Positions 18,001 through 24,000 of a DNA stretch of 64,000 nt are shown here, one piece after another. A program made the position numbers. The DNA lies in the NCBI RefSeq assembly GCF_029227855.1, contig NZ_CP074357.1, one strand, 5' to 3'. The first letter of the stretch is position 1, and each line of letters starts with the position of its first letter. Source of the DNA: Escherichia coli. Lineage in GTDB: Bacteria; Pseudomonadota; Gammaproteobacteria; Enterobacterales; Enterobacteriaceae.

Positions 18001-21000
18001 GGTTGTCCGCCTGATTTCAGGGTAAGCATTCATTCACTGGCCGGTTCTACCTTATTATTCATACAGATTAAAGTAGTTGTGCCTGCTACTGCGGTCACCT
18101 TCCTTGACAAAGTAAGCAAAGTTTGAAAAATTTAACACCGACGAAAGGCCATACCTTCGTTAGTGTGCGAAAGCCGCTTGCGAGCGACGGAATAGGTGAA
18201 AGCTTTAGTCAGGGTTAATTACCCTGTCTGCGGTGATGGGATGGCTCAGGCGTATATCATCACTCCTTCCAAAGTCCGTACACACTCTTTCAGCCTTTGC
18301 AGAAATGCAGGGGCTGTTTCATATCAGACAAGCGCAATGAAATTTTCAAATGCTTTCCAAAAATTCAAAGGCCTTAAGCTTTATCTGTATCTTACGGTCC
18401 CCGCACGGAAAGTAACTTTCCTGAACAGAAACCGCCTTGCCAGCCTTAACTTTCTAAACGGTTAAAGTTACACCAGGCTGTAAATGGTGAAACAGTTTTT
18501 GAAGCCCATGAAACACCGCTGTCGGAAAGATAACTAGCCCCAAGACGTCTAACTTCTTTTTGATGTAGAGCTAATTCTTTCGGATCGGCAATATCTTCCA
18601 CCACGCTCATCATGGCCATCTGAACTCCGGGAGATGCCATTTTATAAGCTGTCGAGCTTGCAACTGAATTTTTCAGGATTGCCACTCTTTCTTTTTCTGG
18701 TCGTCCATTGTCAGACGTATTCGCATAAGTTGTACCGGCAATCAACAACGGAAGGCTGGCATTGGCACAGAAATGCATAACGCGTTTTTGCTGGAGCTGT
18801 AATTCAGTGGCTGCAAATGCTTTACCACATCCGAGGATTCCCAGAATCATAATTAAAGCTGTTTTATTCATAAAATTAAAACCGTCCTTTTTAGCTCTTT
18901 AACTGTTGCGGTTATCTCGGTGTGGATATTTCTGAAGTGTATGATACCCACTTACCTGAGACTGCCAGTATACTGGCTCAGGTATTAAACCTAAGAGGTC
19001 TGGTGCACCGGTTTTAACCTTTTCATTTCGCTTTTATCTTGTGCCAGGCTCTTGAGTCAGAATTTAAAGGTTTGTGGCATGCAGGTTTTACTGCCAGGTT
19101 TAGGCACAACCTGGCTGTCACCCTTCATTGGTCCTGAGCAAGGCCCTGGTATTCTGCCCAGCGTACGGCCAGCCGCTCTAAGTCCAGATCGTACACCAGC
19201 GGTGTGATTTTACGGCCTTCAAACAGCTCGCCCACCTCAATGCCTGGCTTAAAATGAACGGTCAGGGTGGCCGGATCTATGCCCATAAGATCGGCATCAA
19301 ACAGCGCATGCATTGTTGGAGTCATCAGGATGCCATTAGACGGATTGTACCGGGTTCCATGTTCAATGTGTGCCGCATCCAGGACACCTCCATTAACCCA
19401 ACCGGTTACCGCACAACGGCCTGCGAAATTCTCGATGAGCAGAGCTTTGAATTTACCCTGTGCCACGCCACTACGTTGCGTCACTACGCGCTCGCAGTGC
19501 TCACCCTGGATATCTACGTCAGGTTTCCGAATTGGCTCGCTGGTGGCCGTCTCAGCTTGTTTTAGGGTGGAACGTGGATAGGCCAGGTTATATGCTGCGC
19601 CTGTGGTCATTTGCTCGATGACCGCAGGCGCATAACCTTCTGCTTCCAGCTTACGATATGCAGCCCGGTAGTCTCTTTGGGTTTTCAGCGGGTAAATCTT
19701 CCCGCCTTTACCATCGAAAGCGATAAACCAGAAATCGTCCGTGCCAGTTTCAAGATTTCTGCAACGTTTCAGATGCCATCCGCCTTCTCTCGCCCAGATG
19801 GTACGGTTATTTCTGGCATTCGTTTTGTCATACCCGTGCTCGTCAAGCCAGCTATCAAAGCTGGTCAGCCCCAGGTCCTGAACCTCCAGAGAAGGTACAC
19901 GAATGACCTGCAAGGTATGGCGTGGTCTTGGCTCTCTCATCTTGATCTCTTCCTAGCGCTGGTCTGGGAAATACGGATATTGCGGGCCATATTCATAATC
20001 ATGCGGGCCTGGCTCAACTTCCCAGAATGGACGGCCGCTAATTGTCTTTGGACCGCGCTCGTTTACGATGTCTTCTACATCCTGAATATTAAATGGCATC
20101 GTTGCCAGTAACAGCTGATCTTCGGGTGTCAGCGTCACAGTTGCACCGTCGATACGGCTGTAAAGGTCGGCAAACTGTTTACCTGCACCGTGCAACCGGT
20201 GCTCCGCTACACTTCTGATTGCGTGTAAGTCCAGCTCCGCCGCTTCCATGCGATCCACGTATAGTTTCATTTCTTTACGCAAAGCGCTCAGCTCACGGGT
20301 TTTAATAAATCCGTAGGCGTACCCACCCAGGGCGATAACTGCAATGATTGCTAAAATAGCCATTTATTTTCTCTTACGTTACTGCGGCCGCCGCTTTAGT
20401 CTTAATGTGAAGCCTGGGAATTCGCTGAATGAAGAATACGTTTTCACCCCCAGACCGACAGCTGTTAAGGCGCGATCCCAACACTCCATTTGTAAGTATC
20501 AGGCCCATCTTCTCCGCTGGTGGCATCAGCTACAATCTGTGCATAACGTTCTCCAGCAAGTTCTCTTACCATCTGATCCACGACCCATTGCAGATGATGC
20601 ATTTCATCGGTTCCGCCGTAACGACAAGCCAACTCAATAGCCCGCTCTATTCTTTTTTGTTCTTCAGTCATACTGAATCCTCACGCTTACATCAGCTATT
20701 CTGAAAACATGCACACTATAAATTGCGGCTGTCATTTCTCAGCCAGGCGCCTGCATTGCTGCCTCATTCCATCAAAAATACTTTCCGCAAGCTGCTGGGG
20801 GAACTGGTCCGGAAGAAGCCCGCTAACACGTTCAATGACACCCGGGGTTCTGGCGATGATTTCCTCTATCATCGCCTCTGTCTGCTGTTTACTCAGGCCG
20901 GTTATCTCACCATGCCTGATCCAGTGGCGTCGTTGTATTCGATATATCTGGTAATAGTTGCTACTGCCACGTACGGCCATCGCCAGTTTGCACTTCTGCC

Positions 21001-24000
21001 AGGATATCTGATTGTTCCCATGACCGATCACCGGCCATGCCGACAACACATCATAGTTTGGTGTAAGGTGATAACGTCCCTGTGGCCCAATAGAAATACT
21101 GAAATTTTTAGCGTGGCCATCTGTTGCGGCCATCATCCAGAAAATTATCTGCGTCATAAAAAACTGCGCTTTGTCACGCTCAGCACGGTCTGAATTACTC
21201 AGAACCTCCATAATTTCCGATATACCTGGCCCGCCGTCCGCCTGATATTTTCGTAATGGCGAAACGCCCAGGGCCTGACACATATCCTCCTGGGGTAAAC
21301 GAATGATCCATTGTCCGTCTCCTGACCATTTTCGGTCAAAACGTTCTACCACCAGCGCTTTCTGATCTTCAAAGTGAGCAATCTGCGTTCTTGCCACGGG
21401 GAGCCCGTACTGGCCGAGAAGTACCGAGCAGAGCCATTCATTTTCAACCGACGAGCTCATGTCGGCTTTCATGTTCCCCACAAGTCCGAGCGGTAGCTTG
21501 AATATATGCGTCGTTGGTGTATTACCCTCCGGCATACACCACCGATCTTCATGCCACAGTAGGGCTGTTTTCTCCTGAGCACCGGCAATAGATAAACGTA
21601 AGTCGTCGTTATCTTCTGGCCTGCCCGGTAGCAATGTCTCCGTGGTATTACGCAAAGTTGCCGCAATTTCTGATTCAGTAAGCGGGTGATACTTCACGGA
21701 ATATAAATCAGTGGGTTCATCTCCGTCATGAAGCAGCTGTATCGCGCCCACGCAGTCTTTTCCCAGCTCCGTCAGCAGATCAAAAGGCTCCAGGCTATCG
21801 GCCTTGTAACGCATTGCCAGACGTCTGCGTATGCCTTCGCTGTCCGGCAGTAAATTATCAAAATAGTCACGTACCACATTTCCACGCCAGACCTGGTTCC
21901 CGGGAGTAAAAGGAAGGGACAATGACAGCGGCCTTCCCTGTTCGTCAGCAACCCATTCAGGAAGGTATTCTAAGCTGTCTACCCCTTTGCTTTTTTCCCA
22001 GTACCCGACTTTGATGCCGTTCATCCAAATTACCAGACGTTGCTGTTTCCGGCTCATATCGTTACCAATCCTCCTGTCGTGCAGGTGAGTTTGATTTAAG
22101 CATTTCTTCCGTCTGCTTCCTCTCTGAAGAGGTGGTTGCCGAGGAGAAGCTGATTTTTACGCCCAGGATGGAAAACACCTTGAATAGCCGTTCAATGCTC
22201 GCACTGGCAGGGTTGGCTTCCAGACGTGAGTATGTCTGTTGAGTGACGCCTAACCTTTCGGACAGGTCTTTTTGCGTCAGGCCATTCGCCTTGCGAAAAC
22301 CAATGAGCAAGGGACGCAGCTGGTTGAGCGTGTTTAACGGGTAATCATTATTGATCATAAGCTGGCCTCAGTAGTTTCCTCTGATACACCTTGCAGGCTG
22401 TTTCCTAAACATACACCCTAAAAGCTGTAATATCAAATTAACAGCCTAAAAGCTGTTAAATAGGGCGTACAACTTTTAGGCTGTTACTATGTGGCAGCAT
22501 AAATCTTGTTAGCGATACAACTTTATTGTCTCATCGCTCCTCTTTGCAACCAGCTACATACGATCATAAGTGACACAACATTAATATGAAGCGACATTCA
22601 CCAAATGAACCTTCGTCATTTCAGATAGTTAGCTTACTTGCATGTCCTCATCCCATGAAGGGGAGGGCCTACCCATGGCATCGAGCAAAACTGACCACCC
22701 TGCCCTTATTAAGACCCCACATGCGGCAATGGTGCCCTGTCCACGCCGCCCGCGATTTTTGAGGAAATGGGAAGAAAATAAAAAGAAAACAAAAAGTTAT
22801 CGGCTGAAGTATCGGCGCAGATCGGGAATCAGGCGAAGCCTGACAGCACGTTGGGGCCTGGCAGGGGGCTTGAGGGATGAGGACATGCAACTCTGATAGC
22901 CTTCCCGCCACGGGATCGGTTAAATTCGTATCCGGCCGGTGCAATTCCAACGGCCGCGTTACCAGTTCGCCGGGTAGCATGGCCAGCAAAGCCAGGCATC
23001 GAGCACCCGGGTTTCACTAACGGCCGCTGCATAGACGCCGGTATCCGGAAAGAAATAAACCGGGGTGGCGTTGTTCAGCTGGTCGCCTTCATCGGCCAGA
23101 GCGCCGATCACCTCATGAGGCTTCAGCAGCATATCCGTTAAATATTCATCCGGGTGGATGGCATTCAGCGATATGGCCATCTCCAGAAATTCATCCAGTG
23201 TGTGGCGGGTACGATACCCCCGGAAAACCTCGTATGAAGGCGTGACGCATTCACCATCCAGGGAACAGGCATCGTACCCGGCCAGCTGCTCTTCGGTGAG
23301 TCCGGAGGCATGCTTTGCCACAAGATTCGTAAACTGCTCTTTATCGTCCATCACAATCCTTACGCTGTAGGGGCCTGTTTGTGTTATCACTGCTTCCGGA
23401 TTTTACATCGCACAACCCGGCAGGTATCCGGTCGCCCGGGCGTCCTTTGCGGTCATGTTAGCCTTTGGCCTGTATTACGACGAATCCCTTTCACTACACG
23501 GGCTCGCAGGGTGACACCTCCCCTTTTCACCGGAAGCGAAAGAGGAAGAACAGTTTAACAGCCCGGATCCTCAATAATTTTTGCATAACGGACTAAATGA
23601 CCGGTTTATGCAGCCCCTGTTACTTACTGTCGCGGTAAGGATAAAACCCTGGTTATGAAACAGAGTTTGTATCGACGTTTAGGTTTTGGTTGAATGAGTA
23701 ACTCTAAGCAACCGGAATATGACATGGCCAAAGTACAAGGGCTCTTTGTTGGATACCGAAAATTTGCTGTTGATCGCGAGTGGCTTCGGCAGCAGGAAGA
23801 ACAACGTTATCGGGATCGCCAGCGACAATTTGATGAATGGTCCAGAAAATGGGTCACTGTAACTAGGCTAAAAGAGACTCGTTTATGGACTGACGGAGCC
23901 ATCAGGCGATGGCTGGGTGAACCTCAGCAACAGGGTAAATATAAAGTTTTCCCCGTTGAAGCGGTTTTGGCTGCTGAGAAGTTGAATGAGTTTCAGCTCT

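Follow-up and report, generated by a model that had tools for sequence, protein, structure and literature searches.

The subject of this analysis is the hipBA toxin-antitoxin locus in a stretch of 64,000 nucleotides of Escherichia coli DNA (contig NZ_CP074357.1, assembly GCF_029227855.1), referred to here as the window, in which the locus lies on an IncHI2 plasmid backbone. Two complete genes are present on the minus strand. The first, hipB (22062-22358), encodes a 98-amino-acid Xre/Cro-type helix-turn-helix (HTH) antitoxin and repressor with a tryptophan as its last residue, and the second, hipA (20732-22057), encodes a 441-amino-acid Ser/Thr kinase toxin; a gap of 4 nt (22058-22061) separates the TAA of hipB from the ATG of hipA. 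An earlier note on this DNA had claimed a complete hipB-hipA pair with a 4-nt spacer, and both open reading frames (ORFs) and their Pfam domains were found to be there. HipA carries the N-terminal Couple_hipA domain (PF13657; E = 3.7e-21, 75.9 bits against a cut-off of 22.5) and the HipA_C kinase domain (PF07804; E = 3.6e-51, 174 bits against a cut-off of 30.5), and scores 93.5 bits against the NCBIfam model TIGR03071. Among structures in the PDB, E. coli HipA is matched along the whole length of the protein (E = 1e-100), with the catalytic loop DGHAKNFS aligned exactly; the HipA-family entries 4PU3-4PU5, which we take to be the Shewanella oneidensis structures, were matched at E = 2.8e-21.

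The window HipA is 41% identical to K-12 HipA and 44% identical to the HipA of an IncA plasmid. These three proteins were aligned with that of a second IncHI2 allele and three chromosomal homologues, and across the seven sequences residues S156, K187, D313, H315, N318 and D336 were invariant. They are equivalent to S150, K181, D309, H311, N314 and D332 of K-12, where K181 binds ATP, D309 is catalytic and D332 binds Mg; S156, corresponding to the K-12 autophosphorylation site S150, sits within the P-loop LSIAGAQEKTALL. The inactivating HipA substitutions that the earlier note had set as a check on its reading are absent, because the residues equivalent to the K-12 catalytic positions are all conserved. 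Comparison of hipA with its chromosomal homologues gave ratios of nonsynonymous to synonymous substitution rates (dN/dS) of 0.06-0.07, with dS close to saturation, which points to purifying selection on the gene.

The antitoxin gene is also intact. HipB matches the HTH_3 domain (E = 4.5e-15) and the K-12 HipB structures in the PDB (E = 1.4e-6), and scores 41.5 bits against the NCBIfam equivalog model of K-12 HipB, NF007271, which is under the 79-bit cut-off of that model; judged by these profiles, it is a divergent member of the HipB family and not a K-12 equivalog. Because of that sub-threshold score, the RefSeq name is limited to 'helix-turn-helix transcriptional regulator'. The C-terminus reads ...QEDW, and the terminal Trp recurs in 81 of 81 HipBs of the clade described below, as well as in K-12 (LEW, W88) and in the IncA type (REW); in K-12, the tail that ends in this Trp docks into HipA. 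The matches of both proteins to solved structures are unambiguous. The RefSeq/PGAP entry (WP_024136327.1) has 97 amino acids and begins at 22355, where the codon is ATC. An ATG one codon upstream (22358-22356) is preceded at a distance of 7 nt by GAGG, and this ATG looks the more plausible start.

Upstream of hipB lies an array of four dyads of the ACAGC-N6-GCTGT type, starting at 22386, 22413, 22441 and 22469 on the plus strand, with start-to-start spacings of 27, 28 and 28 bp (28, 28 and 27 bp when read on the coding strand). Three such dyads had been counted in the earlier note; the one that was missed is the promoter-proximal dyad at 22386. Operator 1, as the proximal dyad is called here, spans 22386-22401 and reads ACACCTTGCAGGCTGT on the plus strand and ACAGCCTGCAAGGTGT on the coding strand; it was recovered by a pattern scan, as were operator 2 (22413-22428; ACACCCTAAAAGCTGT, coding strand ACAGCTTTTAGGGTGT) and the distal operator 4 (22469-22484; ACAACTTTTAGGCTGT, coding strand ACAGCCTAAAAGTTGT), and operator 3 (22441-22456; ACAGCCTAAAAGCTGT, coding strand ACAGCTTTTAGGCTGT) is a perfect dyad with no mismatches. 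The operator centres at this locus are CTAAAA/TTTTAG, the central hexamer of operator 4 being inverted relative to those of operators 2 and 3. On the coding strand, from 22484 to 22386, the order is ACAGCCTAAAAGTTGT, 12 nt, ACAGCTTTTAGGCTGT, 12 nt, ACAGCTTTTAGGGTGT, 11 nt (atgtttaggaa) and ACAGCCTGCAAGGTGT, followed by 16 nt, the Shine-Dalgarno sequence GAGG (22366-22369, minus strand, read directly), 7 nt and the hipB ATG.

A consensus scan predicts a sigma-70-like promoter interleaved with the dyads. Its putative -35 hexamer, TTGATA (22431-22436, minus strand), lies in the stretch that separates operator 3 from operator 2, and its putative -10 hexamer, TATGTT (22408-22413, minus strand), takes as its first T the last base of operator 2, so that the 17-nt spacer between the two is filled by operator 2. 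Operator 1 begins 6 nt past the predicted -10 hexamer and covers the predicted transcription start.

Clustering of this kind is not expected by chance. In 200 first-order Markov simulations of the window, two matches to ACAGC-N6-GCTGT (at most one mismatch) never occurred within 110 bp (0/200), and the expected count of four-site clusters was about 1e-8. In the remainder of the 64-kb window there are four further matches with at most one mismatch (29591, 46387, 46726 and 51359; about 1.9 expected) and no second cluster. These were considered as a possible HipB regulon, which was rejected: the four are scattered, have no AT-rich centre and are compatible with chance. The K-12-type pattern TATCC-N8-GGATA, allowing two mismatches, was absent upstream of hipB and occurred across the window at chance level, which bears out the claim that the dyads differ in sequence from the K-12 operators.

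Between the array and a minus-strand hypothetical ORF (22959-23390) there are about 460 bp without an annotated gene (22492-22958). A second promoter-like site was seen in this gap on the minus strand, with its -35 element at 22590 and its -10 element ending at 22563. An Rfam search of 19000-24500 at permissive thresholds, which included the gap, returned no RNA element.

A search for homologous HipA proteins in one genome per GTDB species yielded 80 loci at 59-81% HipA identity, with the exception of one partial copy that is 100% identical and has no hipB. The Enterobacterales loci, which are chromosomal, come from Citrobacter youngae, Serratia, Brenneria, Morganella, Hafnia, Rahnella, Yersinia thracica and others, and many further loci are betaproteobacterial (Gallionella, Paraburkholderia, Caballeronia and others); in every full-length locus, hipB lies immediately upstream of hipA. 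When the 300 nt upstream of hipB were scanned in the window and 78 of these loci for ACAG-N8-CTGT with at most one mismatch, 249 sites were found (10.6 per kb, as compared with 0.23 per kb in the remainder of the loci, a 45-fold difference). Nearly all of the 78 loci have the array upstream of hipB. Loci have between 0 and 6 sites, mostly 3 or 4, and the start-to-start intervals (n = 171) are strongly phased: 145 are 27 bp, 12 are 28 bp and 10 are 54-55 bp, the last corresponding to one skipped site. The final site of the array is most often at -43 to -48 from the hipB ATG, and operator 1 of the window holds the equivalent position. The longest array belongs to Yersinia thracica, in which six successive ACAx-N8-CTGT sites occupy -190 to -40 at an exact spacing of 27 bp.

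Within the Enterobacterales, the sites conform to a 16-18-bp palindrome, T-ACAGC-(C/T)TATAG-G(C/G)TGT-A, with a centre that is usually TTATAG, as against TTTTAG in the window. The fifth base of the half-site varies in Betaproteobacteria, and what is invariant in the homologues is a core of ACAG and CTGT held 8 bp apart. The predicted promoter layout recurs as well: in the Enterobacterales loci, the gap that precedes the penultimate site holds a hexamer resembling a -35 element (often TTGCAT), and a TAnnnT hexamer begins at the last T of this site, both in the same position as in the window. A copy on a Cronobacter IncFIB plasmid, with a HipA that is 69% identical, has four sites of the same array. 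Since the motif is common to a large chromosomal clade, it is therefore not a plasmid-specific innovation. No description of an ACAG-N8-CTGT operator motif was found in the literature search, no operator motif is defined in a paper reporting electrophoretic mobility shift assays of Acidovorax citrulli HipB, and none of the chromosomal hipBA systems of the clade was found to have been described experimentally.

The HipB ORFs of the betaproteobacterial loci are about 110-175 amino acids long, as compared with 98 in the window, although their start codons were chosen automatically and may be off. The extra sequence lies between the HTH and the C-terminal Trp and resembles a long linker.

The arrangement at this locus can be placed beside three HipBA systems from the literature. 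In K-12 (b1507/b1508), four TATCC-N8-GGATA operators have been described with a TATAAT box between O2 and O1 (PMC3920265) and with gaps of 10, 21 and 10 bp (PMC4150777). The K-12 and window loci share the gene order hipB then hipA, the same two HipA domains with identical catalytic motifs, an Xre HTH antitoxin with a C-terminal Trp, four palindromic operators, neighbouring operators 27-28 bp apart (O1-O2 and O3-O4 in K-12) and a -10 box between the two proximal operators. The separation of the half-sites is equal, too (4-5 bases, N8, 4-5 bases). An invariant core of ACAG-N8-CTGT is spaced like the ATCC-N8-GGAT of K-12, and the contrast drawn in the earlier note between an N6 dyad and the N8 dyad of K-12 is therefore one of notation and not of architecture. 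The two loci differ in the half-site itself (ACAG(C) versus ATCC), in the distances between operator starts (28, 28 and 27 bp, nearly uniform, versus 28, 39 and 28 bp), in the hipB/hipA junction (a 4-nt gap versus a 1-nt overlap) and in their location on a plasmid versus the chromosome.

Tests of a plasmid-borne hipBA of Klebsiella michiganensis, on the IncA/C plasmid pPSKoxy4_2, have shown toxicity, neutralisation by HipB and stabilisation of plasmids (PMC11487325). The HipBA of the IncA plasmid pKpnLUIS from K. pneumoniae (NZ_MZ465534.1) appears to be of this tested type, given the common IncA/C type and a similar identity to K-12 HipA. Upstream of its hipB, at about 850-948 of the extracted locus, there are four TAACC-N8-GGTTA dyads at -102, -75, -48 and -21 from the hipB ATG, with a spacing of exactly 27 bp. 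Like the window locus, pKpnLUIS thus carries a plasmid-borne hipBA with four operators; it belongs to another plasmid group, its HipA is 44% identical, and its half-site (TAACC) comes with a K-12-like recognition helix. Its dyads are a third putative HipB half-site class with the same phasing, and the K. michiganensis plasmid system is, by analogy, the best experimental counterpart for the function proposed here.

The HipBA of S. oneidensis (SO0705/SO0706) has four GTGTA-N6-TACAC operators with 34-bp gaps and no cooperativity, the fourth being inside hipB (PMC4150777). It shares with the window four palindromes of the 5-N6-5 form and a short hipB-hipA gap (3 bp in S. oneidensis, 4 nt in the window), and departs from it in half-site sequence, in the 34-bp gaps and in a HipA that is far more distant. 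The chromosomal clade represented by Citrobacter youngae, Serratia, Brenneria, Rahnella, Yersinia thracica, Paraburkholderia and Gallionella is far closer, with HipA at 59-81% identity, a TQQxY helix motif and ACAG-N8-CTGT sites at 27 bp, and differs from the window in its chromosomal location, the 0-6 sites per locus and the usual TTATAG centre. Across these systems, the phasing of about four palindromes and a half-site that depends on the clade appear to be traits of the family, and the window locus adds a further predicted HipB specificity class.

The recognition helix of HipB agrees with this. Over 81 clade HipBs, it follows (V/I)TQQ(T/S)YAxLEANP, with the clade motif TQQxY; the window helix is VTQQTYSRLEANP (TQQTYSRLE), that of K-12 is IKQATISNFENNP (KQATISNFE) and that of the IncA type is IKQTTVSDFELRP (KQTTVSDFE). 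The K-12 and IncA types resemble each other in helix and in half-site (TATCC and TAACC), whereas the window clade departs in both. Within the clade, HipB residue 45 (R in the window, equivalent to N44 in K-12) covaries with base 5 of the half-site: R is accompanied by C in 82% of half-sites and Q by C in 22%, while Y and W are accompanied by A in 50% and 58%, respectively. Recognition of the G of a C:G pair by arginine is a common mode of DNA reading. The counts are supportive of a protein-DNA correspondence rather than proof of one, as they are confounded by phylogeny and were made without phylogenetic correction. With a distinct helix conserved together with distinct sites, the suggestion in the earlier note that this HipB has its own specificity very probably holds.

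A broader proposal can be framed for the whole clade, to which we give slightly less than even odds. According to it, HipBA would be organised throughout by a strictly 27-bp-phased ACAG-N8-CTGT array (usually 3-4 sites, up to 6) on which stacked HipA2HipB2 complexes form a continuous higher-order repression complex, and the half-site on the plasmid, read by T39, Q41, Y43 and R45, would insulate it from a K-12-type hipBA of the host. If this is true, control of the plasmid toxin could be independent of the resident hipBA in E. coli hosts that have one.

The plasmid location stated in the earlier note is borne out by the PLSDB matches and by the annotation of identical plasmids, which identify the surroundings as IncHI2 backbone. 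The 2-kb stretch 20600-22600 matches 1186 PLSDB plasmid records, 688 of them at 99% identity or more, and at least 80% of the stretch is covered in 1154 of the 1186. The hosts are Escherichia, Salmonella, Enterobacter, Klebsiella and Citrobacter; the plasmids are mostly conjugative, with sizes of about 200-330 kb in most cases and about 150-330 kb among the matches listed, and the records examined are typed IncHI2A/MOBH. IncHI2A plasmids match the 25 kb around hipBA at 100% identity, a region that includes an IS26-aph(3')-Ia unit, genes for HNH endonucleases and the ter tellurite cluster; the hipBA locus itself is 100% identical to that of hundreds of IncHI2 plasmids. Of 5426 complete E. coli genomes, 284 have the locus, and 286 of its 290 places are on plasmids. 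Two main IncHI2 alleles exist, that of the window and one with a HipA that is 97.7% identical, found mainly in Enterobacter, which we take to be the R478-type. The R478-type allele retains all four sites; in the site-by-site comparison of the operator regions, which was made in view of a 1-nt indel, the differences within sites were confined to central bases.

Several studies list hipA/hipB as a maintenance module of the IncHI2 backbone (PMC4855149, PMC6617520, PMC6306219, PMC11271444, PMC13183382), and hipAB was present in 25 of 25 IncHI2 plasmids in one of them (PMC4855149).

Combined, these results lead us to regard the locus, with good confidence, as a type II toxin-antitoxin operon of the IncHI2 backbone that is under autorepression by HipB, has its own operator specificity and probably serves plasmid maintenance, the function being inferred. 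A HipB dimer would bind, through its Xre-type HTH, the four 16-18-bp palindromes (consensus T-ACAGC-cTATAg-GCTGT-A) and thereby occlude the -35/-10 region and the start site; with the predicted hexamers and the start lying among and under the operators, occupancy would shut off hipBA transcription. HipA would be kept inactive by HipB, in keeping with the conserved C-terminal Trp, and would probably act as a co-repressor, as in K-12. Neighbouring complexes would be 27-28 bp (about 2.6 helical turns) apart, as at O1-O2 and O3-O4 of K-12, and might contact each other through HipA; such contact between adjacent complexes in K-12 was reportedly described by Schumacher et al. in 2015. Were HipB degraded and not replenished, for instance upon plasmid loss, free HipA could phosphorylate an aminoacyl-tRNA synthetase (GltX in K-12) and arrest growth, and the resulting post-segregational killing or arrest would penalise plasmid-free segregants and so favour retention of the plasmid. 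The kinase target is carried over from K-12, and the addiction or persistence role is an extrapolation from K-12 HipBA and from the 44%-identical IncA-plasmid HipA.

Several points weigh against this interpretation. The literature search gave no toxicity, DNA-binding or plasmid-stability experiment on IncHI2 HipBA, and the limited identity of HipA to the K-12 and IncA-plasmid proteins (41% and 44%) bears on both its target and its potency. The predicted promoter hexamers are weak, matching the consensus at 9 of 12 positions. A few plasmids carry a truncated or disrupted hipA: in E. coli pKL53-L the hipA N-terminus is missing, hipB is unannotated and IS110-family and Tn3-family transposase genes adjoin the break, and in the Salmonella plasmid NZ_CP051274.1 the match is in two pieces with no gene annotated. 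Such copies imply that hipBA is dispensable. Lastly, IncHI2 plasmids have other maintenance systems, and the contribution of hipBA may be small.

Among the alternatives, the one that survives best is that hipBA is functional and has been selected for antibiotic tolerance or persistence of the host, or for phage defence of the abortive-infection type, and not for plasmid addiction. Persistence is a known role of K-12 hipBA (PMC8262856), most of the close homologues found are chromosomal, and an IncHI2 plasmid increased ciprofloxacin tolerance in Salmonella, although that study did not ask whether hipBA was responsible (PMC6617520). HipA also gave weak PADLOC matches to the candidate system PDC-M03A (E = 4e-5), but these are far too weak for membership and are non-diagnostic, and the neighbours of hipBA are IncHI2 backbone (HNH endonucleases, hypothetical genes and the ter cluster) and not a recognised defence island. 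A plasmid HipBA that apparently shares this operator layout has been proven to stabilise plasmids (PMC11487325). We consider this alternative unlikely; the addiction and tolerance or defence roles are not mutually exclusive.

A second alternative would detach the repeats from HipB altogether and make them sites for a different factor of the plasmid (a partition centromere, iterons or the target of an H-NS-like silencer, for example) that adjoin hipB by accident. The repeats are indeed phased and have AT-rich centres, like some centromere or iteron arrays, and H-NS-family proteins are encoded nearby on IncHI2. Against this, arrays accompany hipB in unrelated chromosomal contexts, in Betaproteobacteria as well as Enterobacterales, and their distance to the hipB start is mostly similar; the repeats are interleaved with the predicted hipB promoter; base 5 of the half-site covaries with a residue of the HipB helix; and the 64-kb window holds no other such cluster. 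Accidental adjacency is, on this evidence, very improbable. The least credible of all is that hipBA has lost its function and is decaying as a passive passenger of the backbone, for although truncated hipA copies occasionally occur and the dN/dS between the two IncHI2 alleles (0.33-0.50, from 23 and 8 differences only; hipA, 0.33 from 23) looks relaxed, both ORFs are full-length with all catalytic and ATP-binding residues invariant, dN/dS is 0.06 over longer distances, at least 80% of the 2-kb stretch is present in 1154 of the 1186 plasmid records that match it, and the four operators and the C-terminal Trp have all been kept.

Some features of the neighbourhood were noted in passing. Directly downstream of hipA, two ORFs of 68 and 136 amino acids and a gene for an HNH endonuclease lie on the minus strand (19125-20671), and another HNH gene follows at about 16716-17573; the ORFs and HNH genes gave no NCBIfam match, and the PADLOC match was to HNH only. 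None of them is present in the chromosomal hipBA loci. Some IncHI2 plasmids have a resistance region instead of this HNH-gene segment, as in pSTM6-275, where a region with IS26, strAB and tet(A) begins a few hundred bp downstream of hipA (positions 800-7800 of the extracted locus). Further away, at about 13069-16109, the annotation of an identical plasmid shows an IS26-aph(3')-Ia-IS26 unit adjoining an H-NS-family gene, the annotated start of which overlaps the IS26 end; this gene may be truncated or fused.

Overall, the reading given in the earlier note is broadly upheld. On IncHI2 plasmids, hipBA is an already annotated and widely cited component, its architecture follows the K-12 paradigm, and the understanding of HipBA biology is unchanged by this locus. 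What is added is a regulatory map, comprising the four operators, the predicted position of the promoter, the consensus palindrome and the strict 27-bp phasing, together with candidate specificity residues of HipB and an operator code common to a wide chromosomal clade. In Salmonella, E. coli and Enterobacter, IncHI2 plasmids are major carriers of mcr, extended-spectrum beta-lactamase and heavy-metal resistance genes, and knowledge of their stability is therefore of practical use; for plasmid curing, HipB might be provided in trans or titrated away by decoy copies of its operators.

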